A stretch of DNA of 64,000 bases, from NCBI RefSeq assembly GCF_004010195.1, contig NC_057719.1, positions 26,874,418-26,938,417 of the forward strand. Reading direction: 5' to 3'. Under the pieces are notes generated by a model. The model was not told the DNA's origin, did not search any database, and saw only the letters and a list, made by a program, of their open reading frames with translations. The number at the start of each line of letters is the position of its first letter. Position 1 is the first letter of the stretch. This stretch comes from Chiloscyllium plagiosum (Eukaryota). The translations under genes were made by a program, and so were the position numbers. This document shows, in pieces, positions 892-54,445 of the stretch.

Positions 892-1098
892 TGATGTGGA
901 GGTGCCGATGTTGGACTGGGGTGTACAAAGTTAAAAATCACACAACACCAGGTTATAGTCCAGCAGGTTTATTTGGAAGCACTAGCTTTCAGAGCACTGC
1001 TCCTTCATCAGGTCCTGATAAAGGAGCAGTGCTTTGAAAGTTATTACTTCCAAATAAACCTGCTGGACTATAATTTGGTTTTGTGTGATTTTTAATTT
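892..1098. mobile_element. Penelope pLTR-derived fold-back insert, two HHR motifs head-to-head
   Basis: Inverted arms centred on 1013 (cagg-t-cctg). TSD agaataagca at 882-891 and 1099-1108. Same family as the pLTRs at 24543 and 27130-27330. Confidence 0.85.
980..1013 (-). ncRNA. Minimal type I hammerhead ribozyme motif (GGAGC family)
   Basis: Minus strand reads ac-CTGATGA-a-ggagc agt gctct-GAAA-gc-TA-gtg. The partner arm (1015-1045) is decayed (CTGATAA). Confidence 0.7.
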
Positions 1099-2679
1099 AG
1101 AATAAGCAAACCAATGTTTGTGTATATTATGGATAGTTTGAGAGAGTGGAATAGTCTGCAGGATAGAAATTCAAATTAAACATATAGATGCTTGATCTTC
1201 TACCAGTTACATGATTATCTTCCAGAAGGTGTGTGCCCTGTACAGAGTCTATTGCATCAGTGGGTGGGAGAGATGATCCTCACAGAACAGCACCAAGAGG
1301 CTCTTGTGGCATCTCTGATTCTTTTTTTTTTAAGAAGACATTTGCTCATGGAACCCAGATTTTGCTAGCTCGGCTAGCACTTGTTTCCCAGAGAGTAGTT
1401 TGCTATGGATATGGAGTCACAGATCAGACCAGGCTAGGACAGCAGATTTCCTTTCCTAAAGGATATCAGTGAACTAATAGATTTTTACAATAATTGACAG
1501 TGATTACATGGTTACCATTAGGCTGGCTTTGAAGTCCAGATTTTTCTTTAATTCAATTCACATTTCACTATCTGCTGCAGTGGAACTGAACCAATGTTCC
1601 CAGCACATTAGCCTGAGATTTTGGATTACTTACTCATCATTGTGATACCACCTCCATTTTATTCTGATAAGAATCAGACAAACAAACTATTTTAAGAAGA
1701 TAATTCAAATATTTTAATGTTTTTAACTCAATGTGTTGAGAGAAGCTGTTACACATCTCTTGAGCAGATAGGATGAACCCAGATCTCTTGGCTCAGAGGT
1801 AGAGTCACTGCTGCTATATTACAAGAGTCCCTGAGAATTCAACCTTTTTTAATGGTTGTTGCTGTCTTTCCTGCGTTACCCATTACCGATTACCACAATT
1901 CTGAGATGATTTAAAGTGCAGACTTTCTCCATTTCTCCTGTTATAGAAATTTCAATTGTCTCGTTCATTGTGATTGAAAGGACACATCTGTTGAGTGTTA
2001 TTCATTCAGGGTGACAATCAGATATTTGAAATTTGAAACATTGCCTATTTTAGATGATTTCTAATTGTTATGACATGGGTTAAACTCTCCTGTTTAATTT
2101 AGAACCAGCAGCACAGAAAATATTTATCCCATGCATTAATGTGTGAAACTTCAAGTGGCCAAGAACTATTTAAAGTAAAAATTAACACTTTATTTCTTAA
2201 AGTACAGCAGAGAATAATTAACTAACAACTATGTACAAGTCCTTTCTCGAACCTATCTTTTACCTTCCATTCTATAATACTAGTCCGATAAAACTCCCAA
2301 TTAAGACTTACAAAACAACACTAATTATCTCAAAACAAGGCAGCTTTTGTATTTTATATTTAGATCTTCCTCTGTTTTCTTCTTAGGAATTTTTGCGTCA
2401 TAGGTTATTGATTGAAAAGCTCCCTTTAAGGGAGCTATTTTTCAGGCAGCCTTTTATTCGCTGGGGCTTGGCTGTTCTCCTCCCAACTGTTCAATTTTCC
2501 CCTGGTCTTATACCCCAGAACATCGGATTGTGTCATTGGCTTTTAAGATTGTCAATACACTCTTTGGAAACTGGTATTTTTTCAGGGAATAACGTAACCT
2601 GATTGGCCTAATTTGAATCTGTTTTTTGTTGTTTCCAGGCAACCAGTTACTCCTGTAGCCTGAGCTCATGTTACATTGT

Positions 2680-2860
2680 CCAGATTAGAGTAGTGCTGGT
2701 CTCTCTACCCTGGAGGCTCCCTGCCTTCAGTCCTGATGAAGGGCTTTTGCCCGAAATGTCGATTTTCCCGCTCCTTGGATGCTGTCTGACCTGCTGTGCT
2801 TTTCCAGCACCACTCTAAACTAGACTCTGATTTCCAGCATCTGCAGTCCTCACTTTTGCC
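2680..2860 (+). mobile_element. Short HHR-bearing PLE-derived insert inside the solo LTR
   Basis: 13 bp TSD catgttacattgt at 2667-2679 and 2861-2873. First 20 bp are an inverted copy of an internal segment. Confidence 0.85.
2729..2764 (+). ncRNA. Minimal type I hammerhead ribozyme motif (GGGC family)
   Basis: agtc-CTGATGA-a-gggc tttt gccc-GAAA-tg-TC-gatt. Stem I agtc/gatt; predicted cleavage after 2760. Confidence 0.75.
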
Positions 2861-3530
2861 CATGTTACATTGTGTCTTATTGAGAACACTTGGTGCTATC
2901 ACTGCCAACTTTTAACTCTCTTAAAAGGTATAGTTCACCCTCAACTTCATAACACTAATCAACCCATAGAGAGATGTTACAGCATACCTCTGGAGCAGGT
3001 GAGACTTGACCCCAGGCCACCTGGCTCAGAGATAGGTACACTGCCACTGTGCCACAGGAGCTCCTGAGAATTCAGGTATTGACGGTGGAAAATAATCTCC
3101 ATCACGTGATGAAGAGTTAAATCACTTGTGCAACATGAACTCTCAAACATCTAATGCTCAGACCTAAAGGAGTGCAGGTGACAGCTTTACCAAGGGTAAT
3201 ATGGTGGAGAGAGGAAGAAATGGACTGAGGAAAAAGGCGTTATATTTGAAGGTGAGAGTGACAATGAGTAGGTCGGTTGATGTGAATTACCAGAAATGGA
3301 CGGCCCAGGATTGAAAGTGAAGAAATCATGGAAGTCATGTTGGAAATTATACTTTTTAGCATTTCTTGGGATGCAGGGGTCACTGGTTATGCCAGCATTT
3401 GCTTCCCATTCCTTAGAGCCCTTGAAATGAGTAACTTGCTTGGTCATTTCAGAGTCCGTTTAAAAGTCATCTACATTATTGTGCATCTTGAATCACGTGT
3501 AGTCATGACCAAGTAAAAACAGCTGGTTTC

Positions 3531-3800
3531 TTAGATTAGATTACTTACAGTGTGGAAACAGGCCCTTCGGCCCAACAAGTCCACACTCCGAAGAGCAACT
3601 CACCCAGATACAATCCCCTACATTTACCCCTTACCTAACACTACGGGCAATTTAGCATGGCCAATTCACCTAACCTGCACATCTTTGGACTGTGGGAGGA
3701 AACCGGAGCACCTGGAGGAAACCCACGCAGAGGCGGGAATTGAACCTGGGTCTTTGGCACTGTGAGGCAGCAGTGCTAACCACTGTGCCATCGTGCCGCC
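3531..3800 (-). mobile_element. HE1-type (V-SINE) tRNA-derived SINE
   Basis: Minus strand starts ggcggcacgatggcacagtggttagcactgctgcctcacag, has the central gtttcctcccacagtccaaagatgtgcagg block and an (aatct)n tail. Inserted in an older repeat (about 3370-3830). Confidence 0.9.
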
Positions 3801-4216
3801 CACCGTTTCCTTCCCTAAAGAAGGCTATTGGAACCGTGGATTGGTCTGAGAATTGATGATTTGAGGGGAGAGCTTTCCTTAGGGGTCGATGCAGAACAAA
3901 AGGGGAAACATGAACGTGTCTGTTCATGGATTGAAGGAAGTAATCGTTAATGACTTTGTGGTTGAGAGGAGTGCCCGTCAGTTTGGCATGATTGAATATG
4001 AAGAATAAGGCAAGGAAGCATAGGAGAGTAGTGAATTCAAAGGAACGAGGGGAAAATGAGCTACACTGGACAGGGACATGATTTTATCTTCAGTATTGTG
4101 ATTATCATGATGCTCTTGTTAAACCAAAAGGACATTCTGCCTGCAACATAAATGAGTAATATAGTGTATGAATTTCAGTGCCAGTGTGATGCTAGGTGGT
4201 AGGCGGTATATTCTGA

Positions 4217-4485
4217 TGGCAGGGACAGCTCAGTGGTTAGCACTGCTTCCTTACAACACTACGGACCTGGGTTTGAGTCTACCCTTGGGCGACTGTCTGT
4301 GTGGGTTTCCTCTGGGTGTTCCGGTTTCCTCCTCTCGTCCAAAGATGTGCAGGTCAGGTGAATTGGCCATGGGAAATGCAGGGTTACAGGGATAGTATAG
4401 GGGGGTGAGCTTGGGTGGGATGCTGTTCAGAGAGGCAGTGTGGACTCGATGGGCCGAATGGCATGTAGAGGTTCTGTGAATTCTA
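4217..4485 (+). mobile_element. HE1-type SINE, older
   Basis: ggcagggacagctcagtggttagcactgc head, conserved central block and CR1-like tail. Confidence 0.8.
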
Positions 4486-5355
4486 GATCAACTCAAATAA
4501 CAAATCTCTTTGCAACAAGCCAAGGTATTAACTGTGCTCGACTAGTCTGTGCCTTCAAATTTCACACCAATGTATCCAACATTAGTTGTACTGTGATTGG
4601 ACAACATCTGCTACAGAAACCTGAGTGCTTACAGAACCATGCTGACAGCCATTTGTCAGTCTGGCTGGTGCCTTGTGAAAGCTGCATATGTTAATACGGG
4701 AGTGTGTACTTTGCTGACAGAGCGTGTGCACACACTGCATCTGTTACAACCTGACATCTGTTTTCAGATTCACTTCACAGGCAATGTCTTCACTTGCCTT
4801 GGTTAAAATTTAAATAAAGCTAGTCAGATAATTGTTAGCCGTCATTAATTGGTGCAATCCCCATGGCTACAGTGCTACCAATCAGAGACTACTTGCCAAC
4901 CAATCAATACCCGCTTCTCATACAGTGTGAATGTTATTTTCCCATCAGTATTTCTGAAGAACTGTCCTTCTGAATGCAGGCTGTAAAGCTTAAACATAAT
5001 GTATCTCTTTTCAGCTGTACTTGAGCTCTCAACTATGAAATGAGTCTGTTATCTTCAGTTTTTCCTCATTGTATGTGGCCAGTTTCAGATCATGGGATAA
5101 GTTAGAACTAGATTAGATTAGATTATATTACAGTGTGGAAACAGGCCCTTCGGCCCAACAAGTCCACACCAACCCGCTGAAGCGCAACCCACCCATACCC
5201 CTACATTTACCCCTTACCTAACAATACGGGCAATTTAGCATGGCCAATTCACCTGACCTGCACATCTTTGGACTGTGGGAGGAAACCCACGCAGACACGG
5301 GGAGAAAGTGCAAACTCACACAGTCAGTCGCCTGAGGAGGGAATGGAACCTGGGT

Positions 5356-5576
5356 TGAAAATGTGTTGCTGGAACAGCGCAGCAGGTCAGGCAGCATCCA
5401 GGGAACAGGAGAATCGACGTTTCGGGCATAAGCCATTCTTCAGGAAGTCCTGAAGAAGGGCTTATGCCCGAAACGTCGATTCTCCTGTTCCCTGGATGCT
5501 GCCTGACCTGCTGCGCTGTTCCAGCAACACATTTTCAGCTCTGATCTCCAGCATCTGCAGTCCTCACTTTCTCCTC
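5356..5576. mobile_element. Young HHR fold-back element (90 bp arms, 2 nt loop)
   Basis: Arms 5356-5445 and 5448-5537 are reverse complements with one visible mismatch (5435). 14 bp TSD aatggaacctgggt at 5342-5355 and 5577-5590. Confidence 0.92.
5446..5481 (+). ncRNA. Minimal type I hammerhead ribozyme motif (GGGC family)
   Basis: agtc-CTGAAGA-a-gggc ttat gccc-GAAA-cg-TC-gatt. Palindromic ACGT at loop 3. Mirror copy on the minus strand at 5412-5447. Confidence 0.8.
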
Positions 5577-5861
5577 AATGGAACCTGGGTCTCTGGCGCT
5601 ATGAGGCAGCAGTGCTAACCACTGTGCCACCGTGCCGCCCACAATTAATATACAGAAATGAAATACTGAGGTTGGAAATCTGAAGTAAATAAATAAAAAA
5701 CCTGGAAAACGCTCGAAGTCTGGCAGCACGTGTGGAGCGAGAAATAAAGTTAACATTTTATGTCTGTGAACTTGTGTGAGAAGTGATTAAATATATGATG
5801 AAGATGAGAAACCTGAAACTTTTACTTTATTTCTCTTTCCTCAGCAGGTAGTCCTGCTCAG

Positions 5862-6704: not shown

Positions 6705-6709
6705 ACATC

Positions 6710-8700: not shown

Positions 8701-8842
8701 GAAGACCATTGACCATCTGCCATTGATTCTCACTGGCAACGTATAGTACCACTGCCACAAAGCAACCCTGCTGTATGCATGTAGCTGACACTCCCTGCCA
8801 CATACAATCTTATTCACTCACTGTAGTCACTGTTTTTAGTAT

Positions 8843-9168
8843 TTAGAATCCTTATAGTGTGGAAACAGGCCCTTTGGTCCAACAAGTCCACACCGACCCT
8901 CCGAAGAGTATCTCACGCAGACCCATTACCCTACATTTTCCCCTTACTAATGCACCTCGCCTATACATCCCTGAACACTATGGGCAATTTAGCATGGCCA
9001 ATTCACCTAACCTGCACATTTTTAGACTGTGGGAGGAAACCGGAGCACCCGGAGGAAACCTACGCAAGCACGGGGAGAATGTGCAAACTCCACACAGACA
9101 GTTGCCTGAGGCTGAAATAAAAGCCGGGTCCCTGGTGCTGTGAGGCAGCAGTGCTAACCACTGAACCA
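8843..9168 (-). mobile_element. HE1-type SINE
   Basis: Shared SINE head, core and tail. Confidence 0.88.
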
Positions 9169-9429
9169 CTGTTTTTGAATCACCATGCCACACAGTATAC
9201 CTGTCCTTAACCAAATCCTGTCTGAACATCCTGTCTAAGTCACTGCCACTTTGTCCCCACTACTCTCTGTGAATCTACATCTTGTCATTTTCTAGCAGAG
9301 GAACATACAGTGAAGCAATTGGATATTTTCAAACATGAGATTTTAATTATAGCCCACAAAAAATGAACACAAATGAAATAAATAGAGGTTGCAATTTGTA
9401 CACACAATGCAAAACAAATTGTGACTTAT

Positions 9430-15568: not shown

Positions 15569-16472
15569 TAGAACATAGAACATAGAACAATACAGCACTG
15601 AACAGGCCCTTCGGCCCACAATGTTATGCCGAACATTTGTCCTAGCTTAAGCACCTATCCATGTACCTATGGCTACCAGGCTAAGAACTTCTCATTATTA
15701 AAGAAGTATATGAAATTGGGAAGTTACCAAATGCTGTCTCTTGTGTGGACTTGTAGGCACCACTTCTTTTAGTTGGTCTATCTCAGATCTCATAAAGGTC
15801 TGTATTTGTTAGTGAAATCTGTGGGTTAATCAATTTGAGAAGAAATTTAAAGTATTCAAATGATTTAACTGAGCTTTCATGATTTTTTTTTTAATATAGT
15901 GAAGACTATAGAGCTTTATTTCATCCTTAATAACCTTTCACTTCATTGCTTATTCTTAAATCTATCCTTAAAAATATTCAAGGAGCTGCTTCCCCACAAG
16001 AACATTTCAAAGACTCACTTTGAAATGTGAAATGTGAACTGAGAAAAAGAATTTTCCTCATCTGTCTTAAATTTATATCCCCTTATTTTTAAACAGTGAC
16101 CCCTCCTTCTACGTTCACCACATACAACCTGCGAAGGCCCTTCAGGATTTTATATGCTTCAGTTGAGTCACCTGTGATTTTTTGAAACTCCAACACATGC
16201 AAGGCTGGCCTGTCCAGCATTTCACCATAAGACAATCCATCCATTTTAAACAATACTCTCACAAGCCTGCTTCAAACACATTTCCATTCTTCCTTAAATA
16301 AGATCAGTGCTGTGCACAATACTCCATATGTAGTCTTACCGATTCCCTGAATAATTGAAGCATAACCTCCCTGCTTTTATTCCATTATAAATTCTTTCCA
16401 AAATGGACAACCTCACACTTGACAGGGTTGAACTCCATCTGCCACTCCTCAGCCCAGCTCTGCATCATATCT
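15569..16472 (-). mobile_element. CR1 3' end whose interior is replaced by a duplicated segment
   Basis: (tagaaca)n tail and 3' UTR at 15569-15670. CR1 ORF2 piece (WQMEFNPVKCEVVHFG on minus strand) at 16396-16472. Confidence 0.75.
15669..16395 (+). repeat. Copy A of a 0.7 kb local direct duplication
   Basis: Near-identical to 22583-23296, from atggctaccaggctaag to ttccattataaattct. Confidence 0.95.
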
Positions 16473-16501: not shown

Positions 16502-16703
16502 GGGAGAAAGTGAGGTCTGCAGATGCTGGAGATCAGAGCTGGAAATGTGTTGCTGGAAAAGCGCAGCAGGTCAGGCAGCATCCAGGGAACAGGAGAATCG
16601 ACGTTTCGGGCATAAGCCCTGAAGAAGGGCTTATGCCCGAAACGTCGATTCTCCTGTTCCCTGGATGCTGCCTGACCTGCTGCACTTTTCCAGCAACACA
16701 TTT
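16502..16703. mobile_element. Young HHR fold-back element (about 80 bp arms)
   Basis: Arms 16541-16620 and 16626-16705. 15 bp TSD cctgaaatgtaattg at 16487-16501 and 16704-16718. Plus-strand core CTGAAGA-a-gggc ttat gccc-GAAA-cg-TC at 16619-16646. Confidence 0.9.
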
Positions 16704-17615: not shown

Positions 17616-17709
17616 GCTGAAAATGTGTTGCTGGAAAAGCGCAGCAGGTCAGGCAGCATCCAGGGAACAGGAGAATCGACGTTTCGGGCATAAGCCCTTC
17701 TTCAGGAAT
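17616..17709 (-). mobile_element. Single-arm HHR-bearing insert (GGGC family), nested in an older related repeat
   Basis: Minus strand 17673-17710 reads gattc-CTGAAGA-a-gggc ttat gccc-GAAA-cg-TC-gattc. Near-TSD cagagagaa (17607-17615) and cagcgagaa (17710-17718). Confidence 0.8.
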
Positions 17710-22582: not shown

Positions 22583-23296
22583 ATGGCTACCAGGCTAAGA
22601 ACTTCTCATTATTAAAGAAGTATATGAAATTGGGAAGTTACCAAATGCTGTCTCTTGTGTGGACTTGTAGGCACCACTTCTTTTAGTTGGTCTATCTCAG
22701 ATCTCATAAAGGTCTGTATTTGTTAGTGAAATCTGTGGGTTAATCAATTTGAGAAAAAATTTAAAGTATTCAAATGATTTAACTGAGCTTTCATGATTTT
22801 CTTTAATATGGTGAAGACTATAGAGCTTTATTTCATCCTTAATAACCTTTCACTTAATTGCTTATTCTTAAATCTATCCTTAAAAATATTCAAGGAGCTG
22901 CTTCCCTACAAGAACATTTCAAAGACTCACTACCCTTTGTGTGTAAAAAGAATTTTTCTCATCTGTCTTAAATTTATATCCCCTTATTTTTAAACAGTGA
23001 CCCCTCCTTCTACGTTCACCACATACAACCTGCGAAGGCCCTTCAGGATTTTATATGCTTCAGTTGAGTCACCTGTGATTTTTTGAAACTCCAACACATG
23101 CAAGGCTGGCCTGTCCAGCATTTCACCATAAGACAATCCATCCATTTTAAACAATACTCTCACAAGCCTGCTTCAAACACATTTCCATTCTTCCTTAAAT
23201 AAGATCAGTGCTGTGCACAATACTCCATATGTAGTCTTACCGATTCCCTGAATAATTGAAGCATAACCTCCCTGCTTTTATTCCATTATAAATTCT
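22583..23296 (+). repeat. Copy B (probable donor) of the 0.7 kb duplication; right part is an old minus-strand CR1 fragment
   Basis: Near-identical to 15669-16395. Confidence 0.95.
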
Positions 23297-23775: not shown

Positions 23776-24542
23776 CCATAGAACACAGGAAAACCTTTTA
23801 AAAACCTTACTTCGACACTCGGCATTCGCTGTGGCAAACTTCAGTTTGAGTACTTGGGCGGTGGGCCCAACTGCATCTGGACACTTCACCTGAACAAAGA
23901 TTTGGCAGTTTAGGAGACTTTTTATTTTAAGGTTGTCTTGGTTTGCAGGGAGAATTCCTGACTTCTGCTGTCTGACTTGGGGAGTGAAAACCCAGATAGT
24001 TATGCAGCTGAACAGTGGCTTATAAGTTGGTGTCAAGATCAAAGTGAGGCCAATAGAGATCCCTATTATTTCTGAGCAAAGGCCGGCAGGCACACAATTA
24101 AATGCAGAAATACAGAAGTTGCTGTTGGAGTTATACTGCTCTGCAGTTAGCATTCTGAAAATGGCGTTTTTCTGTATGTCACCATTAAAATTCATTGGGT
24201 GGCATAAAGCTGCTGTCTCTGCACATTGGCTATGAACTGAATTTGACCAATTAATTAACTAATTAAATTCTCATTAGACCTGGCCTGAAGTAACGCAAGG
24301 AGCTATTATGGAGCCACACAGAGTTAATTAAAGTTGTGTTGCCTGTCAAAAATCCTTTCAATTAAGTGCTAATTGTTGATTATTGTCAACTAACCCTTTT
24401 TAAAATGTTAACTTTGTTTTACTTTTCTAACTTTTTTTCTCTCTCAATTTCTCACTTTCTTTCCCTCCTTTTAATTTTTTTTCTGTACCTCATTGGCTAT
24501 TAGTTTCACCTATTCTAATTTATACTTCCTTCTTGGTCCTGG

Positions 24543-25654
24543 GTTAAAAATCACACGACACCAGGTTGTAGTCCAATAGAGTTTAATTGGAAGCACACTA
24601 GCTTTCGGAGCGACGCTCCTTCATCAGGTGGTTGTGGAAGGCATAATTGTAAGGCACAGAATTTATATCCAAAGTTTACAGTATGATGTAACTGAAATTA
24701 TACATCGAAAAATACCTCAATTGTCTGTGGCGTCTTTCATCTGTTCGAATACCATGATAGTTTCACTTCTTTCATGTGTAAATCACAAAACCTTTTTTTA
24801 AAAGTTGCATTCTTAGGTTAACTAACAATTGGTGTTAGCTAGACAATATGTTGAAGGTGTTAGCCCCCTGTGTTCTCTGTGTATGCAATGATGTTTAGAT
24901 TGATTCTAATCTAACAAGTGAGATAACACAGTTTCACATGAATTCATGCAGTTTTTGAGCAAAGTACAATGTAACTCTGCAAGTACAAATTCATCCCACA
25001 AAATATATGTATAAGTGTGCATGTGAGTCTTTGTGTCTGTGTGTGTGTGTGTGTCTGTCTGGGTTGGGGGGGGTTGCAAGTGTGAGAGAGAGGGTATATG
25101 TGTGTGTAGTGAGTGTAGCGTGGTCTAAGTCTTTGAGAGGATGCATGTGTGAGTGTGGAAGTGTGTGTGTGTCTGTAAGGTTGTGTGCAAGTGTCTGCAT
25201 GCATGTCTGTGTAAATGTGTGTCTGTGTGTATGTGCATGTATAGTGCGATGGTGGTCACCTGTAATGTGACATGAACCCATGTCCCAGTTGAGGCCCTCC
25301 CTATGAGTATGGGACTTAGCTGTCAGCCTCTGCTCGGCCACTTTTCTCTGCTGCCTGTCCTGAAGTCCGCCTTGGAGTATGGCCACCCGAAGGTCCGAGG
25401 TCGAATGTCCTGGACCGCTGAAGTGTTCCCCAACTGGGAGGGAACACTCCTGTCTGTTGATTGTTGTGCAGTGCCCATTCATCCGTTGCCGTAGCCTTTG
25501 CTCGGTTTCCCCGATGTACCATGCCTCAGGGCATCCTTGCCTGCAACGTATAAGATAGACAATGTTGGCTGAGTCACATGAGTACCTACCACATACATGG
25601 TGGGAGATGTCCCCACGTGTAATGATGGTATCCATATCCACACTCTGACGCGTC
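24543..25654 (-). mobile_element. Penelope-like element 3' part (GIY-YIG endonuclease + CA-rich UTR + pLTR), left inverted arm
   Basis: ORF 24991-25641: YSCDSANIVYLIRCRQGCPEAWYIGETEQRLRQRMNGH..LPVGEHFSGPGH..RKVAEQRL..GLN, a PLE-type GIY-YIG domain. Confidence 0.92.
24596..24630 (-). ncRNA. Minimal type I hammerhead ribozyme in a PLE pLTR
   Basis: Minus strand reads cac-CTGATGA-a-ggagc gtc gctcc-GAAA-gc-TA-gtg. Sense to the GIY-YIG ORF. Confidence 0.85.
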
Positions 25655-25889
25655 CATACAACCCTGTCATGGTAGGCGCTGCAAGACGTGTCAGAGTGTG
25701 GATACCACTATTACGCATGGGGACACCTCCCACCATGTGCATAGCAGGTACTCATGTGACTCAGCCAACGTTGTCTATCTTATACATTGCAGGCAAGGGA
25801 TGCCCTGAGGCAAGGTACATTGGGGAAACTGAGCAAAGGCTACAGCAATGGATGAATGGGCACCGCACAACAATCAACAGACAAAAGTG

Positions 25890-26226
25890 GCACGGTGGCA
25901 CAGTGGTTGGCACGGTGGCACAGTGGTTAGCACCGCTGCCTCGCAGCGCCTGAGACCCGGGTTCAATTCCCGCCTCAGGCGACTGACTGTGTGGAGTTTG
26001 CACGTTCTCCCCGTGTCTGCGTGGGTTTCCTCCGGGTGCTCCGGTTTCCTCCCACAGTCCAAAAGATGTGCAGGGTCAGGTGAATTGGCCATGCTAAATT
26101 GCCCGTAGTGTTAGGTAATGGGTAAATGTAGGGGTATGGGTGGGTTTCGCTTCGGCGGGTCGGTGTGGACTTGTTGGGCCGAAGGGCCTGTTTCCACACT
26201 ATAATGTAATCTAATCTAATCTAAAA
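25890..26226 (+). mobile_element. Young HE1-type SINE inserted in the PLE endonuclease ORF
   Basis: CpG-rich full copy with (aatct)n tail. TSD aaaagtg at 25883-25889 and 26227-26233. 20 bp head is duplicated. Confidence 0.93.
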
Positions 26227-26358
26227 AAAAGTGTTCCCTCCCAGTTGGGGAACACTTCAGCGGTCCAGGACATTTGACCTTGGACCTTCGGGTGGCCATC
26301 CTCCAAGGCGGACTTCAGGACAGACAGCAGCGAAAAGTGGCTGAGCAGAGGCTGATAG

Positions 26359-26483
26359 GAGAAAGTGAGGACTGCAGAAGCTGGAGATCAGAGCTGAAAA
26401 ATGTGTTGCTGGAAAAGCACAGCAGGTCAGGCGGCATCCCAGGAGCAGGAGAAACGATGTTTCGGACATAAGCCCTTCTTCAG
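26359..26483 (-). mobile_element. Single-arm HHR-bearing insert (GGGC family) inside the PLE ORF
   Basis: 16 bp TSD gagcagaggctgatag at 26343-26358 and 26484-26499. Minus strand reads CTGAAGA-a-gggc ttat gtcc-GAAA-ca-TC. Confidence 0.88.
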
Positions 26484-27761
26484 GAGCAGAGGCTGATAGC
26501 TAAGTTCGGTACCCATAGGGAGGGCCTCAACCGGGACCTTGGGTCCATCTCACACTACAGGTGATCACATTGCACTATACACATACACCGACACACACAC
26601 AGCCACTCCTATACACACACATACACATGGACACACATATACACAGATACACACACACACACCCTTACAGGCACACACAATCTCACCCTCACACATGCAC
26701 CCCCTCAAAGACTTGAGACACTCTACACACATATATACACTCTCTCTCACACTCACAATCCCCCCAACCCAGACAGACAGACACACACACAGACAGACAC
26801 AAAGACCCATATGCACACATATACATATGTTTTGTGGGGTGAATTTGTACTTGCAGGGTTACATTGTACTTTGCTCAAAAACTGCATGAATTCATGTAAA
26901 ACTCTGTTATCTCACTTTTTAGATTAGAATCAATCTCAACATCATGGCATAGTCAGAGAACACAGGGGGCCAACACCTCCAACATATTGTCGAGCTAACA
27001 CCCATTGTTACAGCTAACCTGAGAATGTAACTTTTAAAAAAAAGGTTTTGTGATTTACACATGAAAGAAGTGTGGTATCATGGTATTCGAACAGATGAAA
27101 GACTCAACAAACAATCAAGGTATTTCTCAATGTATAATTTCAGTTACATCACACTGTAAACTTTTGCTATAAATTCTCTCTGTTAGGATTAAGCCCTCCA
27201 CTATCACCTGATGAAGGAGCGGCGCTCCGAGAGCTAGTGTACTTCCAATTAAACCTGTTGGACTATAACCTGGTGTTGTGTGATTTTTAACTTTGTACAC
27301 CCCAGTCCAACACCGGCATCTCCAAATCATGACGTCAACCTTATTCACCATTGTTTCTCATCACGCCACAAGTCATTAATAAAGATATAAAATATTTGAA
27401 TTCCAGCATTAATTCTTGTGGAACAGTAATAGTTGCTTTGTCTAGACATTACACCTTTTCAATTAAAGAAAAATTTAGGGGATACTGTTCCTTTGTGCAT
27501 TCTCTGATGCACAGCTTTACCAATCAGATTTGACTTGCCTTTTCTTGAATTTAAACAAAAGATTTGTGATCACTTCACTGGTGCATTTGCCATGGCAACA
27601 TTTTTACCAATCAGAGTCCTCTGTGAACCAATCAGCTCGTTTCCTTGCATTTGTCCTGATGAGTGCAAGATCTAAAGCTTCAACAACCTGCCTCTTTTTT
27701 CAGAAATACTCACAACATCAAACCGGAATTGGAACTGCAATCTATGCTGCATCAGCATTCT

Positions 27762-28035
27762 ATACCGGTACCACTCCCCAACACTTCCTCCGCTACATTG
27801 ATAACTGCATCGGTGCCACCTCGTGCTCCTGCGAGGAGGTTGAGCAATTCATCAACTTCACCAACACATTCCACCCTGACCTTAAATTCACCTGGACCAT
27901 CTCTATCACCTCCCTCCCCTTCCTGGACCTCTCCATCTCCATTAATGATGACCGACTTGACACTGACATTTTCTACAAACCCACCGACTCCCACAGCTAC
28001 CTGGATTACACCTCTTCTCACCATACCTCCTGCAA
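27762..28035 (+). mobile_element. Penelope-like reverse transcriptase fragment
   Basis: FLRYIDNCIGA..FINFTNTFHPDLKFTWTIS..LPFLDLSISI..TDIFYKPTDSHSYLDYTSSH, PLE RT motifs around (R)YIDD and the thumb. Confidence 0.9.
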
Positions 28036-28265
28036 AAGTGGAACAGATGAAAGACTCAACAGACAATCAAGGTATTTTTCAATGTATAATTTCAGTTACA
28101 TCACACTAAATTTTTGATATAAATTCTGTGCCTTACAATTGTGTCCTCCACAACCACCTGATGAAGGAGCGACGCTCCGAAAGCTAGTGTGCTTCCAATT
28201 AAATCTGTTGGACTATAACCTGGTGTTTAACTTTGTATACCCCAGTCCAACACCGGCATCTCCAA
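28036..28265 (+). mobile_element. Third Penelope pLTR
   Basis: Reverse complement of about 24543-24750. Followed by the TSD copy at 28266-28278. Confidence 0.88.
28155..28189 (+). ncRNA. Minimal type I hammerhead ribozyme, intact, sense to KCNH5
   Basis: cac-CTGATGA-a-ggagc gac gctcc-GAAA-gc-TA-gtg. Palindromic AGCT at loop 3; predicted cleavage after 28186. Confidence 0.85.
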
Positions 28266-29392
28266 TTCTTGGTCCTGGTGCAGTTTATTTCACAGTCCTT
28301 CAATCAGTTTAAGGAAGTATACGCAGTTGGCTGCCCTGTTTACTCGGGTCTCAGATGTTCAGTTGCTGTAGTGCTTTCAACTTCCAGCAATTTGCGATGC
28401 AAAACATCAGCAAGGTTGAATGGGCCAGGGAAGGTCCAATTATATCTGATGTTGTTAGATTCACTCCTAAGGTTAGCTATTGTCCAAATTGCAATTATTT
28501 CCAAACATGCTATTTGTGATTAGTTTTGATACACTGCAGAAAAATTTGACCAATGTCTTTGTCAATATTTATCTCTGAACCAATGTAACTGAACGTATTA
28601 CCTGATCATTATCATATTTTATTTTGTGGCGCCATTCAAATTGGCTGATGTGTTTCTGACATTACCTCAGGGACTGCTGTAAATTATTTCATTGTCTGTA
28701 AAGGGTTTTGGGCGACCTGAAATTGTTAACAATCCTATATAAATGGTAGTCCTTTCTGGGTATTGTCAATGAGTTCTTGAATGAAAGAATAACACCGAAG
28801 ATAATATCAAAGATTCTATGGAATCTCTTGATTTTTTAGGAACCAGTTTACACCATGTTGTTACTAAATTATCCTGCTCTTAGGGAGGATCCTATCATTA
28901 GCTCTTAAACATTCTAGAGCATATTCCTGCTAATCAGGACTCGTTCACATGCTGTTTGTGTGGCAGAGATCTTTGTGGGCTGTGTTTTGCATACCAGGAG
29001 CAAAATCCTCTTGCTGCAATATAATGTCACACTAACTATTCCTTTCTGTACATGGTTTATTGTTCATGAAGGGAAGTCATATAGCAAGAATTAGTTTTAA
29101 CTCATTACTGTCAATTTAGCAAAACACTGTTGTCTCATTTGACTCTACATAATGTTGAATGTACATTCTTTGAATGCAGTGAATTTAATTATGTAGAGTG
29201 TGGATTTGTATTAAGTAGAAAGTGTGTTGGTCAGATTATAAATTAACCTGATGATATTGTGGATTTTGTTTTGCACATATGAATAGTAATTATACTATGT
29301 GGAGATCAATATCCGCAATACACGTACTTCCAAATCTAGTCCAACAAATGCATTATTGAATGGCATGCTATTACCAAACTGTACTGTTTTAA

Positions 29393-29545
<153 letters not shown>

Positions 29546-35165: not shown

Positions 35166-37055
35166 CTGACTCTGTATACCATTAAAATGTTCATATTTGT
35201 GTGCAGACCTTTCATTGAAGAGTATTAAGGAGCAATAAGGTGACTCGGGGAATTTTATGGGTCCTGTTGTCGGTTATTTACAGAATCTCAGATATAACCT
35301 TGATTTCTGTTTGAAATCTAACAAGTGCCATGAGAAGCCATCTTAGCGCAGGAAGATGTGAATGACCAACATTCAGTCCCTGTCACGTGACATTGGCTTA
35401 TGACATCAGACCTTGTGTGGACAATGGAAATCCTGATTCTGTGGCAATATGATTGAAATTAACTTGAGATGGAAGGTACTTTGAGAACAGCCCAGTCTGG
35501 TCAGTCTGGGAGAAGATGAGATCTGAAGACAATAAGGAAGCCATCTATCCCTGAGAAATGGGTGGAGCCTGTCTCAAAATTTATCCTTGGGAGAAGATTG
35601 CATCATTTAAGCTGTAAAATTATAAATCTTCACTTCAGGGGCTCAACAACTTTGGCTGGGCAACCAAAATTTCTTTTTGTTTGGGGTGAATCATCGTGAA
35701 TGTGTCACCACCAATATTCAGAGCATTAAGAGGGAATCCTTCAGGCCTGCAATGTTTTACCTACCATCGTGTGAACTCGTGAGAATTATTTTCTTTTTCT
35801 TTTGTTCTTTGAGAGTAAACTTTAGATGTCATCATTTCTTGTGGTGTGTATTTGGTGTGGAAAAGCAATGGGCGTTTGTTGTGCTTGCATGTTGTGTGCT
35901 GTGAAACATAAGCATTTATCCTTTCATTTGGTTTAAGTGTAAAAGAAAGCCTGTCTTTCTGAAAAATCATAGCATGTAAGGGCTTAAAATACTTCTTCTC
36001 TAAAATATTATTAGGCTCAGCTGAGAAGTGAGAAAAGAAGGAAATTTTCTCATCCATGTGTAAAATCCATAACAATTTTAATGTCATTATGGGTTCAGAG
36101 GTTGATGCAAATTGAAAGCCCATTGTAAAGAAGCAGAGAGACAAGAACCAACACTCCAGAAGCCTGGCTAAATCCTAGGTTGGGTTTTGAGAACTTAGAC
36201 TCAGATTTATATATCTAGAAATAAAAGATATTGGCATCAGTAAAGGTAGTCATAAAACTGTTGGATTGTTATAAGAACCAAATTGGTTCCCTAATTGGTT
36301 TAGGAGGTAAAAAAAACAACTATCCTTATCTATTCTGGCTTATAAGTGATTCAAAACTGCACTAACAAAAACAGAAATTGCTGGAGAAATTCAGCAGGTC
36401 TGGTGGCATCAGCTAACAGAAAGCAATGTTAAAATTTCAAGTTCAGTGACTTTTCTTCAGAACAAGGCTGCACCACAGTGGATGAATCTTAATGTAGCCT
36501 AGCAAGTTTCAAACTTCCGAATAAGAAATAACAGTGACACCCTCATACTGTGAAACAATATAAATTATGAACTTTGGTCACATTGTAATTTGTACCAGAC
36601 TGGGGAAGCAGCTTTCACACTGCATCAGCATTTATTGGGACACTGAAAATGCTCTTCAAGGTAAATGGAAAATGGGGTTAGGAAGATAAATGAATGCCAC
36701 ACACTCCTTCCTTCTTGCCCATGGTCCTGCTGAGGTTGTCTCTCTGAGTCTTGTTGCTAGCTGCTGAATGTTTCTCTCCTGCTGTCTGGTTGTTTCTGGC
36801 CACTCAGACTGCTGCTGCCTCCCACTAACCAGCTCTGCTTCCTAATCACTTCCCACAGACAGACAGCTGACTGGCAGCTTGCAGAGGAAGTCTGGGAATT
36901 AAAATATCTCATGCCTGAAAACAATCATTTTATATTGCTGCCCTCTCCTCCACATATTTTAAGACTGTTCGATGTTAAAATTGGCTCCTGTGTTAAACAC
37001 ACAAGAGGGCTTTGTATTCTGATTCTGTCAGTCATTCTTCCTCTCTCCGTGCAGG

Positions 37056-45692: not shown

Positions 45693-45693
<1 letters not shown>

Positions 45694-45734: not shown

Positions 45735-45737
<3 letters not shown>

Positions 45738-46729: not shown

Positions 46730-48170
46730 AAAAGTCTTAAAGATGTGTAGCAGCCACTTGAGAGTTGTATATTCAATATTCTGATTTTCTACCAAACAGC
46801 TTTCAAAACTGCTCTTTTTCCATGTGTGAAGAGTCTTATCTGATCATTGCAAGGAGTGGGTGATGGACTTCAGTGCAGTTCTTTGATGCTCAATTCAGAA
46901 TACCTTGAACATGGTTTATTTCGGAGCCAGACTATTGGATATGTATGGCGGCACAAACATGCATTTCATGTGAGTGTTGATGTGGCTTCAGAGCCAGCAG
47001 ATCAAAAGCAAACTTGATTTTCTCATTTCAGCAGTTACAAAACTGCTGTGAGCAGTGTAGACTATTCCATATTGCCTTCATAGACCTCGGCAAGGCCTTC
47101 AACAGCAATAGAGATGGAGTCCTAGACTCTTGCCATCATTTTTTCTTTCCATCAGGATATGTGTATTTATGTTAGATTCAGTCAAGTATGTCATCAAAGG
47201 CTTTTAACGTCAGCAATAGAGTTCAGCAGGACTGGTGCTCTCTCTTGGCATATTTTTCTGTACACTGCTATTGTATGCCTTCTGCAACTGAAACAAAGGT
47301 GTGTAGCTGCAGGCCGGAGCTGATGCCAAGTTTTTCAACTTGTAAAAGTTTAGGCTAACAACAAAGTCTTTACTGACTTGACAACCTGTACTGAAGCTGA
47401 CTGACAGCAGCTTATAGCCCTGATCATCAGCATCTGAAAGACCAAAGTTATGGGGCTAGGATGTATAGATTCTACCTTCCATCAATGTTGATACCCTCCC
47501 TCTGAAGGATCGACAATTACCAGCAATTTGTCCCTTGAAGCAAAACAACCAAAATTTCTAAGCACTGTGTTTATTAGGCTTATGTTCTCTGCACCCTCCT
47601 TAGAGCAGCGAGGCTTGGACAACTTCTGTCAGCCAAGAAAAGCAGCGGAACAACGTCCAACTCTACTGCCTGTCCTGAATTTTATGATCTCCTGGCAAAA
47701 GAGAGCTTTGACAAAGGGTCAGTTAGACTCGAAATGTCAGCTCTTTTCTCTCCTTACAGATGTTGCCAGACCTGCTAAGATTTTCCAGCATTTTCTCTTT
47801 TGGTGGCAAAAGAGAGTGCTGGGCATGGAAGGCCACCAGTGTGCAGGGATCCATGGCATTTCTGCGCAGGTATTAGCTAGGCCATGTGAGCCAAATTGAT
47901 GGTGGTCACATCCCCAAAGACATTCTGTATGGCGGGCTTTACCCAGCTCACCCCCAACTGTTTTACAAGGATGTCTGCAAGCTAGACCTCAAATTGTCTG
48001 GGTCGGGAATGCCTGAAAGCAAAGGACAAAAAATAAAAGACCTGATGCTAGAAATTGAGAACCCGTTGGAAGGAGGAAATTTCAGTTACCTTGGGTCAAT
48101 GCAATTCACCTGTACTGACTATGGAAGGGATTGGCACTCTTGAATTGGCCCAAGCAGCCACAACAAACCA
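46730..48170 (+). mobile_element. RTE-clade LINE relic
   Basis: 46981-47118 encodes CGFRASRSKANLIFSFQQLQNCCEQCRLFHIAFIDLGKAFNSNRDG; about 47880 encodes GHVSQIDGGHIPKDILYG. Both are typical RTE/BovB motifs. Confidence 0.8.
47706..47803 (+). mobile_element. Short HHR-like insert (GGGTC family, variant core)
   Basis: 13 bp TSD tggcaaaagagag at 47693-47705 and 47804-47816. Reads agagct-TTGACAA-a-gggtc agtta gactc-GAAA-tg-TC-agctct. Confidence 0.75.
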
Positions 48171-49165: not shown

Positions 49166-49294
49166 CCTGATGAAGGGCTTTTGCCCGAAACGTTGATTTT
49201 CCTGCTCCTCGGATGCTGCCTGAACTGCTGTGCTTTTCCAGCACCACTCTAATCTAGAATCTGGTTTCCAGCATCTGCAGTCCTTGTTTTTACC
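49166..49294 (+). mobile_element. Single-arm HHR-bearing insert (GGGC family), sense to KCNH5
   Basis: 10 bp TSD ctgggaaatt at 49156-49165 and 49295-49304. CTGATGA(49167)-a-gggc tttt gccc-GAAA-cg-TT-gatt. Confidence 0.85.
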
Positions 49295-49386
49295 CTGGGA
49301 AATTTGCATGACTATTGAGTTCCAATGAGCACAATAGCCCAAATGCTCATTGTGAACACAAATGCGGATGGTTGCCAATGATTATG

Positions 49387-49715
49387 GGGCAGCACAATGG
49401 CTCAGTGGTTAGCATTACTGCCTTACAGCACCAGGGATCTGTCTGTGTGGAGTTTGCACATTCTTCCCATGTTAACATGAGTTTCCTCCAGGTGCTCCAG
49501 TTTCCTCCCACAGTCCAAAGATGTGTCCGTTATGTGGATTGGCCATGCTAAATTGCCCATAGTGTTCAGGGTTGTGCAGGCTAGGTGGATTAATCATGGG
49601 AAATGCAGGATTGCGGGAATAGAGTGGAGGGTGGATCTGGGCGGGATGGTCTTTGGAGAGTCAGTGTGGACTCGATGGGCAGAATGGCCTGCTTACACAC
49701 TGTAGGGATTCTATA
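49387..49715 (+). mobile_element. HE1-type SINE
   Basis: Shared SINE head, core and tail. Confidence 0.85.
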
Positions 49716-49950
49716 ATCATCATATAACAGTTCTGCAATGCACACTTACGACCATATTACATGTAGCATGAGCAGGTAAGGTGCATAAAATATTCCCGTA
49801 ATGATTTACATATAAATATCTTTATTGAATAAATCTGTAAGATACTTACACGATGATGCAACTGTTTCTAAATGTCATTTTCCCTCCTGTTTCCTGTTGA
49901 TTACAATTCTAAGATTAGAGCACATCATCAACAAAAGCAGGAATAGGTGA

Positions 49951-50100
<150 letters not shown>

Positions 50101-51509
50101 TAATTGCAATACAATTAAAAATTCAAATAATTTGTGATTTTCCTTGGAATAAATTGAAAGTATTAGCGTTTAAAATATTTTTTAAAGTAGTTCCTTTTTT
50201 TGCATTCTCTAGTTACTGAATTGTGCATTTTCTAATGTATCAGTTGCTTTAGACTATATTTGTTATTGTGACATTGCAATCAGAATGGCTGTTTTTAATT
50301 TATTAAAAGCCATTTGTTTCTTGCTGAGATTTAATTCCAATCCAATCTGCATTTTCATGGATCCGTTTGAATAAGTGAGATACCCTCATCATTCCTTTAG
50401 CAGCGTTTCATAAATGACTTATTGCATAAACTCTGCTGAGCAAATCCCCAGCAAGTCTTTTGGTTCATCTATGTTTTCCCATCTAGGTGCCTACCATTGC
50501 CAAGGAAGACCCTGCACCTAACCACCCTCAGTTTCATTAAAATGTAGAATATGCATTAGTTGAAGATGTATAAATACTATTGAATGTAGTGTATTCTGTT
50601 AAAAAGACCCTCTTTAAAAAAAAAACTTCATCATTTATAAAGTGGATGAGATACCAAAGTTTGAACCACATCATCTTGGCTTTGTGTTTGTATGCTTGAC
50701 GTTAATTTTACTATTTGGTTGTTCAGCCTGTTTGTTTTACTGCAGTACCATAAATGGCTCTCCTTATGGATAATTTCAGAAATATTTTTGAATGGTCCGT
50801 CATGAAAATGCTTTTAAAATCAGAAGTATATAATGGCTTTGTATCTTTAAAAAGTAACATTTTAGTTAAAGAGCAATGATCAAAATATGAGCGAGATATT
50901 TTGATCTGTATCACAATGTGGAAAATGCATCCATAACACTGCATCCCATAGATATGGAATGCAGACTCTGCAACATCGTTGTTAACAATCTTATCTGTAA
51001 AATGCACTAGCACGATACAACAAATAATATTGCCATTGTAAGCGCTAGTCTGTCTTGTTTTGAAGTTGAGTAATGTATTGGATGGTAACAATGCCTGTTC
51101 TATTTTAGACTTGCAGTGATATTCTTAAACCTGCTGTATTTATTCTTAGTAAGTTATTTGGGTCAGATTATATCTATGTTGAAGATTTATTATAAAACCT
51201 CCTTCAATAGTCTTTTATGATTTTTTTGTCAAAGTACACAAAATGTAACTCATCAGTACAGTAAGATACAAAACACAATGACACACATGCAAGATAATGA
51301 AATACAATGATAATTAGGAACTCTATTATCAGTGATCTTATGATAATGTCAGAACAAGTTGTAACCACTTCCTGAGTATGTTGGGTCTCACAAATGTCTG
51401 TTCCCCCTTACCTTTTCTAGTTAAACATTATGTTTGATAAAGCCTGTTAATATTTACTTAGCTGAGTGCAAACCTGATTGTACTGTAACACAACCTAAAC
51501 TTTATCATA

Positions 51510-51647
51510 ATAAAACCCGAAAGAATTGTGAATGCTGTAAATCAGAAACAAAAAACAGAAATTGCTGGAAAATCTCAGCAGGACTGGCAGCATCTGTGGA
51601 GAGAAAGCAGAGTTAATGTTTCGGGTCAAGTGGCCCTTCCTCAGATG
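51510..51647 (-). mobile_element. HHR-bearing pLTR-like repeat (GGGTC family)
   Basis: Minus strand 51612-51647 reads CTGAGGA-a-gggcc actt gaccc-GAAA-ca-TT-aac. Confidence 0.7.
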
Positions 51648-51659
51648 AATAAAATCTTT

Positions 51660-53260
51660 TGGGCATTTTGATTACTCATTCAAAGCTATCTCATTAATCC
51701 ATGGGCATCACATCACTCCATGTCCTTCATACATGTTCTCAATAAAACATCCAGTATCATATTCTCTTTTCCAGACATATGAACAATTTTCAAACTGTAT
51801 GATTGGAGAATTAAACTCCACCTAACTAATTGTAATTTCTTCTCCCAATATTTGTCTCGGAAAATCGAAGGATTGTGTGTCAATACAGTTTACTCCGTGT
51901 TTTGATTTTACATCAGCAGCAATGATATAGAACTATCACAATGCTCAATGTCTTCTTTTCCACTATAGGATATTATGGCTAATATGTGGTCAGTTTCTTT
52001 GTAAAATAACTGATAGGTCCTTTGATCCCAGTCCCACCTACTTGCATTAAAACAGTTCCCAAACTAATCTCACAGGCATCAATGATAGTTTGAGTGTCTT
52101 ATGATAAATTGGTGCTGTAAAACTGGTGTGGTTATCAGCATGGCTTTCATATTGTCAAAGTCACTTTGATGCTCTTGTGTCTATTCAAATTTTCTGCCTT
52201 CAAGAAATTTGTTAAAGGTTCAATGACAGTGTTGAGGTTCACGACAAATAGTCAGCAAAATGTACAATTTCATGTTTTCTTCAAGGGAAAATCCAAAATA
52301 GCCCATACCTTCACTTCTCTGGGTGCCATTTAGGTTTGTCCCACACTGTGGCCTAAATATGTCACCTGCACATTGGCAAATTCCCAGTCTGATTTATAAC
52401 CAAATTGGCTTTTTGTGGTTGATCATTTAAATAGTGTATATGTTCTTCGTAAATTGGTTAAAACAATCAAGTTGTCAATGTAAACAACACAATTACGACA
52501 ACGTATTTTCATTCGTTAATCATTAAAATGTTGATGGTGCATTTTCATTCCAAACAACATGACTTTGAATCGTTAAAGTCCGTCTGGTATTATAAAAGCC
52601 CATATTTATTTGGCTTTGTCAGTAACCAGAACTGGCCAAAATTTCTTTAGAAAGTCAATTTTATGACAAATCATGCCTGTCCAATTCATTGTAGTCTTCC
52701 AGTGTTGAAATAGAGTAGGAGTCTGCTTTTATTACCATGTTGACTTTATGATAATACAATCTGTGTGACCTATCTAGTTTCAGCACCATCATGATAGGTG
52801 AGCTCATGTTACCATTACTCAGTTCATTAATGTCATTGTCCATCATTAGCTTAATGTCTTCCCTCACTAGAACTGATCTCTCTGGACTGAGTCTGAAGGG
52901 AGGTTGGTTTTTAGGTAACATCATGTTCATCCTGACTTATTCTCATAATTGACATATCTTCCAGTGATAGCCATTTTAAGTCACTTTAATAGCTTTCTAG
53001 AAGATAATACCTGATGTTTTCTAACTTTTAAAGTACCTTCATGTTTTTCAATTGATTGTTGGATGGGCAAATTTGAATTTTCAATTTCTGATTCATTTCC
53101 AGATAGCTCTGATTTTCAGTTTCATTCCCTACTTCTTTCATGACTACGTGTTCATGTTCCATGAATATTATCCCTTTATAATGCCTTTTCAACATATTAA
53201 CTTGACACACTTGCTGATTGATTCTTTCTCCTGTCTGGAGTACTCACCACATAATTCACA
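51660..53260 (-). mobile_element. Gypsy LTR-retrotransposon pol relic
   Basis: ORF 52661-52930 PKNQPPFRLSPE..VREDIKLMMDNDI..SSPIMMVLKLD..HKVNMVIKADSYSISTLED, followed by IDFLKKFWPVL-like RT motifs. Confidence 0.8.
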
Positions 53261-53269
53261 ACATTGAGG

Positions 53270-54300
53270 CTAGAAGACCTGTTGGCAAAATGCCACACAG
53301 GAGGCTGCTAAATAAGGTCAGAGCCCATGGCGTGAGGGACAAAGGACAAGGTACTGGGATGAATAGAGGATTGGCTGACTGGCAAAGGCAGAGAGTGGGT
53401 ATAAAGGGGTCTTTTTCAGGAAGGTAGCCAGTGACTAGTGGAGTTTCGCAGGGGCCAGTGTTGGTCTATAACTACTCATGTTATACATTAATAATCTGGA
53501 TGAAGGAGCTGAGAGCATTGTTGCTCAGATTGAGATGACACAAAGATGGGTGGGGTGGCGGGGGGTGGAGGTAGTGTTGAGAAAGTGGGGATACTGCAAA
53601 AGGACTTGGATAGGCTAGGAGAGTGGGCAAAGAAGTCACAGATGGAATACAATTTGGAAAATTGAGGTTTTGCAGTTTGATAGGAGGAATAGAGATGTAG
53701 ACTGTTTTCTAAATAGGTAAACGGTTCAGAAATCTGAAGTGCAACAAGACTAAGGAGTCCTAGTTCAGGATTCTCCAAAGTTAACATACAGGTTCAATTG
53801 GCAGTAAGGAAGGCAAATGCAGTGTTAGCAAAGACTAGAATACAAGAGCAGACATGTACTGAGGCTGTACAAAACTTTGGTCAGACCGCATTTGGAATAT
53901 TGTGAGCACTTTGGGCCCAATATCTAATGAAGGAGGGTGCCCGGAGGAAGTTCACAAGAATAATGGCAAGAATTCAGGGATTGTCATATGGGGAGCGTTT
54001 GAGGACTTATGGTCTATACTCCAAGGAGGTTAGAAGGATGTGGGGGGGGGGGGGGTGTCTCATTGAAACTTATAGAATATTGAGGGGCCTGGATAGAGTG
54101 GTCTTGGAGAGATGTTTTAAGCAGTAGGAGAGACTAGGACCCGAGGACACAAGCTTCAGAGTGAAAGAGTGACTCTTTAGAACTGAGTTGAGGATGAATT
54201 TCTTTAGCCAGAAGGTTGTGAATCTATGGAAATCATTGCCACAGAATCCCTGGGAGGTCAAGTCATTGTATGTAAGACAGAGATAGCTATGTTCTTGTTT
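53270..54300 (+). mobile_element. CR1 LINE ORF2 fragment
   Basis: KMPHRRLLNKVRAHGVR, RRKFTRIMARIQGLSYGERL, LIETYRILRGLDRV. Confidence 0.88.
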
Positions 54301-54302
54301 TA

Positions 54303-54445
54303 ATAAAAACTGGATAGAACTGCAGGTGCTGGAAATCAGAAACAAAAACAGAAATTGTTGGAAAAACTCAGCAGATCTGACAGCATCTATGGAGACAAAG
54401 CAGAGTTAATGTTTCGGGTCCAGTGACCTTTCTTCAGAACTGTTC
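54303..54445 (-). mobile_element. HHR-bearing pLTR-like repeat (GGGTC family)
   Basis: Minus strand 54405-54440 reads gtt-CTGAAGA-a-aggtc actg gaccc-GAAA-ca-TT-aac. Ends in the mini-palindrome agaac-t-gttct. Confidence 0.75.

Follow-up and report, generated by a model that had tools for sequence, protein, structure and literature searches.

Minimal type I hammerhead ribozymes (min-HHRs) were described in 2014 by Cervera and De la Pena in Penelope-like elements (PLEs), together with their families and their massive dispersal in metazoan genomes as single copies from truncated PLEs (PMC4209133). The motif class and its spread as single truncated copies are, thus, already known. A CX2-5CxxC linker before the GIY-YIG endonuclease domain defines the Neptune clade of PLEs, and Nematis also carries this linker (PMC8557442). 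The transposition cycle is poorly understood; the sole in vitro study, on the Poseidon element PAc of Anolis, gives a precedent for two internal priming sites, cutting and extension of both target strands, uncleaved RNA as the main template and a protein-assisted HHR (PMC11167929). The stretch of DNA analysed here (the window) comprises 64,000 nt of the shark Chiloscyllium plagiosum (contig NC_057719.1, positions 26,874,418 to 26,938,417, forward strand), in which hammerhead motifs are distributed over introns 1-3 of the KCNH5 gene. As judged from their sequence, these motifs are the hammerheads of the terminal repeats (pseudo-long terminal repeats, pLTRs) of Neptune-type PLEs; the short cassettes that carry them probably stem from abortive reverse transcription of uncleaved element RNA, of which they copy the first 95-130 nt, and are probably inert where they lie.

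The analysis adds a large count and two measured insertion patterns that bear on the PLE mechanism: hundreds of thousands of insertion records agree with the in vitro work and could give it a quantitative, testable form, namely a single tail in each inverted pair, a 5′ end at a fixed place and no cleaved templates. An initial annotation of the window had foreseen that novelty would drop if these families were already annotated as HHR-bearing pLTRs, while the motif call would stand; the class had been described (PMC4209133), and the call itself holds.

Minimal Hammerhead Motifs in the Window

The inventory was made with the pattern CUGANGA...GAAA, and all 12 motifs of the initial annotation were recovered, each with CUGANGA, GAAA and UH in the type I order. 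The positions listed there were low-end coordinates; the core nucleotide C3 lies at 1011(-), 2733(+), 5443(-), 5450(+), 16619(+), 17705(-), 24627(-), 26483(-), 28158(+), 49167(+), 51644(-) and 54437(-), and the predicted cut positions 2760, 5477 and 28186 proved correct in a motif-by-motif audit. Only six of the motifs, which had all been listed with intact cores, keep both stems and a palindromic loop 3 (1011, 5450, 17705, 24627, 28158 and 49167); in the remaining six, loop 3 has decayed, stem I is lost or pair 10.1-11.1 is broken. The stem I version AGTC/GATT derives from the junction, the family strands really being ATTC/GATT or ATTC/GAAT. With a strict descriptor (stem II of at least 4 bp, UH, stem I of 3 bp or 4/5), the window gave 8 matches compared with a mean of 0.04 in 50 dinucleotide-frequency resamples, indicating that the motifs are not due to chance; seven of these matches belong to the 12 motifs, and the eighth lies at 36460(-).

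The motifs were assigned to families A, B, C and U, and by their sequence features they are PLE-type minimal type I hammerheads, with cleavage predicted. In a set pre-selected for a paired stem II, an unpaired A precedes stem II in 67/67 A1, 18/18 A2, 75/75 A3, 88/89 B and 42/42 U copies, and the opening pair of this stem, G10.1-C11.1, is G-C in the commonest form. Helix III is absent, and loop 3 is palindromic in 179 of the 206 motifs (ACGT in 96, AGCT in 83) under a descriptor blind to the palindrome; a further 22/206 have the CpG-decay forms ACAT or ATGT. According to the family, stem I is ATTC/GAAT, AGCT/AGCT or CAC/GTG and stem II is GGGC/GCCC, GGAGC/GCTCC or GGGTC/GACTC, so that the stems vary yet stay paired. 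Core, covarying stems, palindromic loop and the mobile inserts flanked by target-site duplications (TSDs) bear out the ribozyme class first proposed. In family U, U3-A8 replaces C3-G8 in the catalytic core, and this swap is fixed family-wide (copies at loci L219-L248 and at 47706-47803 of the window), which shows that the core is selected in the source elements.

Of the checks suggested in the initial annotation, Rfam returned no hammerhead family among 14 matches at E up to 5, and the stems change between families with pairing kept; a formal count of stem pairs in a 10-sequence MAFFT alignment, in which family B is out of register and which was, therefore, discounted, was not above shuffles (61/500 for covariation). 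Rfam thus misses these motifs entirely, and ribozyme censuses would undercount them. Folding predictions gave stem I, stem II and an open core for a natural A2 copy, and the other three copies tested, as well as dimers, are predicted to adopt partly other folds. Published min-HHRs were inactive as monomers and weak as dimers in vitro (PMC4209133), 8/9 Xenopus dimers were inactive (bioRxiv 10.64898/2026.07.22.740005), and the anole (PAc) HHR needs protein (PMC11167929). About 2% of one single-cell RNA run yielded 1,929 reads from both strands, of which 94% continue into sequence of another kind, and neither their starts nor their ends accumulate at any point; the reads are not a valid cleavage test and fit passive transcription within host RNAs. 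A second RNA run gave 0 reads. Another HHR family, in which stem II is longer, was noticed at L096:6950 and, on the minus strand, at L199, in the latter case behind a reverse transcriptase (RT) fragment with a YVDD motif, possibly of Poseidon type.

Association With Open Reading Frames

The link to PLEs is provided by longer copies. Family A HHRs lie ~300 nt behind open reading frames (ORFs) with CX4CxxC and GIY-YIG, and family B HHRs 600-760 nt behind RT-CxxC-GIY-YIG ORFs, the CX2-5CxxC linker ahead of a C-terminal GIY-YIG being present in both. Pfam identified RVT_1 and GIY-YIG on longer copies and gave no match on the PLE fragments inside the window, where GIY-YIG and RT pieces adjoin family B motifs. 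At the locus L274/L279 the order is HHR, tail, leader and ORF start, in a copy that begins 7 nt before the core; this arrangement indicates that the cassette forms both the front and the back end of the element. For each short subfamily that was well sampled, longer copies linked to an ORF exist. The proposal that the cassettes are separate non-autonomous, retrozyme-like elements is, therefore, not supported: the same sequences are found as terminal repeats of ORF-bearing Neptune-type PLEs, and no tandem arrays were seen. The description of the inserts as free of ORFs likewise fails for motifs 24627 and 28158, both of which lie in a composite insert with GIY-YIG and RT pieces.

Two further features of these copies were observed. 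At loci L280-L309, many copies fuse the ORF start directly to the 3′ untranslated region and pLTR, an internal deletion that looks as if the RT had left the 3′ part of the RNA and resumed in the 5′ part. In A1, A3, B, C and U, a pyrimidine-rich tract ending in AG and resembling a splice acceptor precedes the core by 4-25 nt (L022, L186, L051, L076, L221), whereas A2 lacks it; such tracts recall the Drosophila virilis intron that ends at helix I.

Abundance in the Genome

The genome was sampled in sixty evenly spaced 10-kb stretches of the eight largest contigs, amounting to 574,084 bases without N. Strict motifs numbered 12 in this sample, compared with 0-1 in resamples, which extrapolates to about 74,000-75,000 genome-wide (95% range 38,000-130,000); for loose motifs the estimate, based on 34 de-duplicated motifs out of 36, is about 200,000. 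A 36-mer of family A occurs without mismatch 28,555 times in the genome, its reversed control 0 times, and pattern searches, exact or with one mismatch, gave 6,900 matches for family B and, at one mismatch, 1,473 for family U, with 0 in the controls. The very large population that had been suspected is thus borne out. The density of one motif per 5 kb holds locally, and for fragments in any state (those of family A, including decayed ones, number 106 in the sample), but not for intact motifs beyond the window: the loose descriptor found 10 motifs in the 64 kb of the window and 36 in the 574,084 sampled bases, and the window exceeds the genome average ~2.5-fold (loose) to 6-fold (strict). The flanks of the window (118,617 bases) contain just 4 loose motifs, all on the plus strand, too few to call a strand bias.

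Insertion Ends and Probable Origin of the Cassettes

In families A, B and U the 3′ ends of the cassettes form two peaks separated by ~35 nt, a difference that corresponds to the PLE tail. When two cassettes lie head to head, one tail is found per pair: this was the case in 78/82 classified pairs of a first set (8/90 unclassified; p=8e-19), while solo arms with and without the tail are evenly split (85:85 and 54:56). Loci unused before, with the pairing distance widened to 300 nt, gave 44/48 classified pairs (8/56 unclassified), so that in the pooled sets the 35-nt tail is on exactly one arm in 122/130 classified pairs.

The 5′ ends pile up ~4 nt before the core. They were counted in samples rather than genome-wide, after copies beside N gaps or locus edges and duplicate contexts had been dropped; in the evenly spaced sample, 40/91 family A ends are at -8..0, 4 at -59..-9, 16 beyond -60 and 1 at +26..+30, the cut site. 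Solo arms alone peak at -4, family U repeats the peak (14/23 at -8..-1), and an independent DNA run and an RNA run have loose ends at the same base. Families A, C and U have an A here, preceded by a pyrimidine. A peak at the cut site was rejected: besides the single end in the sample, only 5/287 ends across all loci lie there, fewer than at +9 or +45, and 3 of the 5 are at self-complementary junctions. Since the inserts keep the core and few of them start at the cut site, the insertion templates appear to be uncleaved.

These patterns would be explained if many element RNAs began ~4 nt before C3, most likely at the transcription start, their first four bases forming stem I. Both target strands would be nicked by the element protein, which probably acts as a dimer and would use two internal priming sites, one for each strand; synthesis primed close to the 5′ end of the RNA would run off after 95-130 nt and leave a cassette, while priming in the 3′ pLTR would produce the longer, 5′-truncated copies. 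By analogy with other PLEs, cleavage by the hammerhead would require a dimer or the help of a protein. A more far-reaching version is put forward tentatively, with somewhat less than even weight: the RNA may start exactly four bases before the core, making the ribozyme the 5′ end of the mRNA, with internal priming yielding several hundred thousand 95-130 nt "strong-stop-like" inserts; the one-tail rule would then be an in vivo footprint of a PLE dimer that primes two strands from two RNA sites, and cassettes keeping an internal promoter could spread as the smallest HHR-bearing SINE-like (short interspersed element-like) units.

Several observations weigh against the origin of the cassettes from the 5′ end of PLE RNA. 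The ORF link was seen in families A and B; family C was not tied to an ORF, and for family U such a link is doubtful. In paired arms the near-palindrome can displace mapped 5′ ends, solo arms being the cleaner set. No pile-up at -4 was seen in 30 copies anchored on the ORF start; of the four that pass the core, one ends at -3 and three reach -33..-51, suggesting that some templates begin further upstream. The family B boundary is blurred over -12..-1, and an extra cap-derived G at the 5′ junction is not supported (8 G among 17 non-C bases, several from target DNA). Furthermore, the start of D. virilis Penelope precedes a 75-nt intron by 46 nt and is thus far upstream of the HHR (PMC2377424; PMC4209133).

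Some of these points would also suit a fixed 5′ end that reflects trimming or protection of the RNA, with a 5′-3′ exonuclease stopped by an HHR-protein complex, or a preferred junction with microhomology at an endonuclease-preferred ATT, the cassettes then being ordinary 5′-truncated copies of the 3′ pLTR. The missing cap-G and the ORF-start copies are in line with this, as are the many junctions that share 1-5 bases with the target and the preference of PAc for ATT (PMC11167929). However, ATT is absent from this place in families U and C, and U nevertheless has its peak at -4; moreover, an RT blocked by a bound protein or fold would be expected to halt 3′ of the HHR and not 5′ of it; this explanation is, thus, considered improbable. 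The possibility that the short cassettes are self-propagating non-autonomous SINE-like mini-elements, with internal promoter, HHR and priming sites, re-mobilized in trans by the PLE protein, also appears unlikely. It would account for the fixed 5′ end, the own TSDs and the excess of short over long copies in the sample (40 to 16), and it draws on the internal promoter of Penelope (PMC2377424) and on the finding that pLTR sequence is enough for trans mobilization in a rotifer (PMC3846280). Nevertheless, all common short haplotypes have long counterparts; the best candidate for a short-only subfamily (7 short, 0 long) was rejected, having 5,683 upstream-bearing matches, with remnants of an endonuclease ORF upstream at 12/20 loci opened. 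This comparison is a coarse one (90 nt, ~200 copies, long copies over-sampled).

Two other explanations carry far less weight. Non-LTR (long terminal repeat) retrozymes, i.e. HHR-flanked units that are cut, circularized and reinserted, share with the cassettes the type I HHR and the short inserts without ORF, and a PLE ancestry has been proposed for them, one chondrichthyan being among the positive genomes (bioRxiv 10.64898/2026.07.22.740005); this origin is very improbable and already largely refuted, as no tandem array with HHR exists in the window, same-strand neighbours of the same family within 1 kb amount to only 6 pairs among 308 motifs, with irregular spacing, the ends are at -4 and two priming sites instead of the cut site, and the HHRs are minimal and not canonical. 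Cutting of KCNH5 pre-mRNA by sense-strand copies pairing with one another is extremely improbable: intact sense copies with the same ACGU loop do occur at 5450 and 49167, with an AGCU copy at 28158, but the loose motifs of the window are 5 sense and 5 antisense, without strand bias, compatible partners are kilobases apart, the inserts are young and of polymorphic type, and the published monomers and most dimers were inactive or weak, as cited above. The derivation of the cassettes from the 5′ end of uncleaved PLE RNA thus remains the likely one. Although the core is selected in the source elements, insertion does not seem to proceed from cleaved RNA.

Individual Insertions and the Host Gene

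TSDs of 10-16 bp, as previously noted, were found at 7/12 inserts tested, and an eighth, of 13 bp, flanks a composite insertion. Three cassettes are arranged head to head: a family B cassette at 892..1098, with the HHR on the minus strand (C3 1011, H17 983) and a 10-bp TSD; a young family A cassette at 5356..5576, within a SINE-like repeat and with a 14-bp TSD, whose plus arm has the tail and an intact motif (C3 5450) and whose minus arm lacks the tail and has G10.1 mutated (C3 5443); and a family A cassette at 16502..16703, with a 15-bp TSD, whose plus arm has no tail and has lost stem I (C3 16619), the tail being on the minus arm. Two cassettes belong to an older subfamily of A, both on the plus strand and with a tail: 2680..2860, which also has a short inverted 5′ piece, a decayed loop 3 (C3 2733) and a 13-bp TSD, and 49166..49294, with U at position 17 (C3 49167) and a 10-bp TSD. 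The family A solo cassette without tail at 17618..17709 (minus strand, C3 17705) has its 5′ end 4-7 nt ahead of the core, and no TSD of at least 7 bp was found for it. The initial annotation did not include the coordinates of the family U cassette with the U3-A8 core variant (47706..47803, plus strand, core starting at 47708, 13-bp TSD) nor a decayed family C cassette on the minus strand (36367..36464, C3 36460). Two more decayed family C cassettes lie on the minus strand at 51505..51646 (C3 51644) and 54300..54441 (C3 54437), both with an approximate left bound.

The composite PLE insertion occupies 3.7 kb (24543..28265; TSD 24530-24542 / 28266-28278), without tail at its left end and with tail at its right end. 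It holds the family B HHRs 24627(-), 27208(+, core broken) and 28158(+), a family B GIY-YIG endonuclease fragment (24994..25707, minus strand; mirror arm 25699-25889, plus strand), a nested family A cassette with tail (26359..26483, minus strand, C3 26483, stem I broken, 16-bp TSD) and an RT fragment of family A type fused to a family B 3′ end (27740..28039, plus strand). The whole joins four parts, namely a head-to-head unit of family B, a stretch of ~400 nt of different sequence, the RT fragment of family A type and another end of family B, a makeup that points to template switching between families.

The host gene, previously named as KCNH5, is on the plus strand, with exon 1 upstream of the window and exons 2 (29420..29542, approximate bounds) and 3 (49989..50095) inside. 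Exon 2 taken alone scores slightly higher against KCNH1 than KCNH5; a downstream exon scores best against KCNH5, and a KCNH1-type exon was found at a second locus on a different contig. These exons bear out the original assignment. Past the window, intron 3 harbours a reading frame that resembles the integrase of an LTR element or a retrovirus (L212:8079 onward). The window also contains a 727-nt direct duplicate (15669-16395 / 22583-23296; 96.7% identity, 6.9 kb apart, no ORF), due to local duplication or to an assembly effect, and plentiful SINE-like repeats, which we take to be HE1-like (3530-3803, 5100-5642, 8837-9181, 25890-26225 and others); one of them contains a cassette and another sits within the composite insertion.

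Comparison With Known Systems

The motifs resemble the metazoan PLE min-HHRs in the core, the extra base after position 9, G10.1-C11.1, the palindromic 15-16 positions without helix III and the short helix I, as well as in the many families per genome, the prevalence of single motifs from truncated PLEs and the opposite-strand pairs (PMC4209133). The same source reports the U3-A8 swap of family U for Schistosoma, where stem II has 7-8 bp versus 4-5 bp here; the motif numbers are ~10-fold above the 4,000 of coelacanth and 9,000 of Xenopus given there, which were obtained with different descriptors. A literature search, with most subscription papers and supplements outside its reach, brought up neither a report devoted to sharks nor any counts for the tail rule or the -4 end.

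With the endonuclease-bearing (EN+) PLEs of the Neptune clade (PMC8557442, PMC3846280) the elements share the C-terminal GIY-YIG with the upstream CX2-5CxxC linker, 5′ truncation, an inverted 5′ copy, a 30-40 bp tail often at a single end, solo pLTRs and an initiator-like pLTR motif. In the accessible text of these papers the single-end tail is described in words, and neither the one-tail rule counted here (122/130) nor a fixed 5′ end at -4 was found quantified.

The metazoan non-LTR retrozymes (PMC7229834; bioRxiv 10.64898/2026.07.22.740005) are similar in the type I HHR, the lack of an ORF, the likely PLE origin and the very high copy number (up to 120,000 in axolotl). However, they form head-to-tail arrays of 150-450 bp units with mostly canonical HHRs and circular RNAs, whereas the cassettes described here are solo or head to head, minimal and identical to PLE ends. 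The Poseidon element PAc, studied in vitro (PMC11167929), starts reverse transcription at two internal sites, which delimit the tail and follow the HHR core by ~90-130 nt; both strands are cut, uncleaved RNA is used and no RNA-seq ends were reported at the cut site, all of which resembles the shark insertions; PAc belongs to another clade, and its ORF starts inside stem II, compared with ~160 nt after the core in the elements described here.

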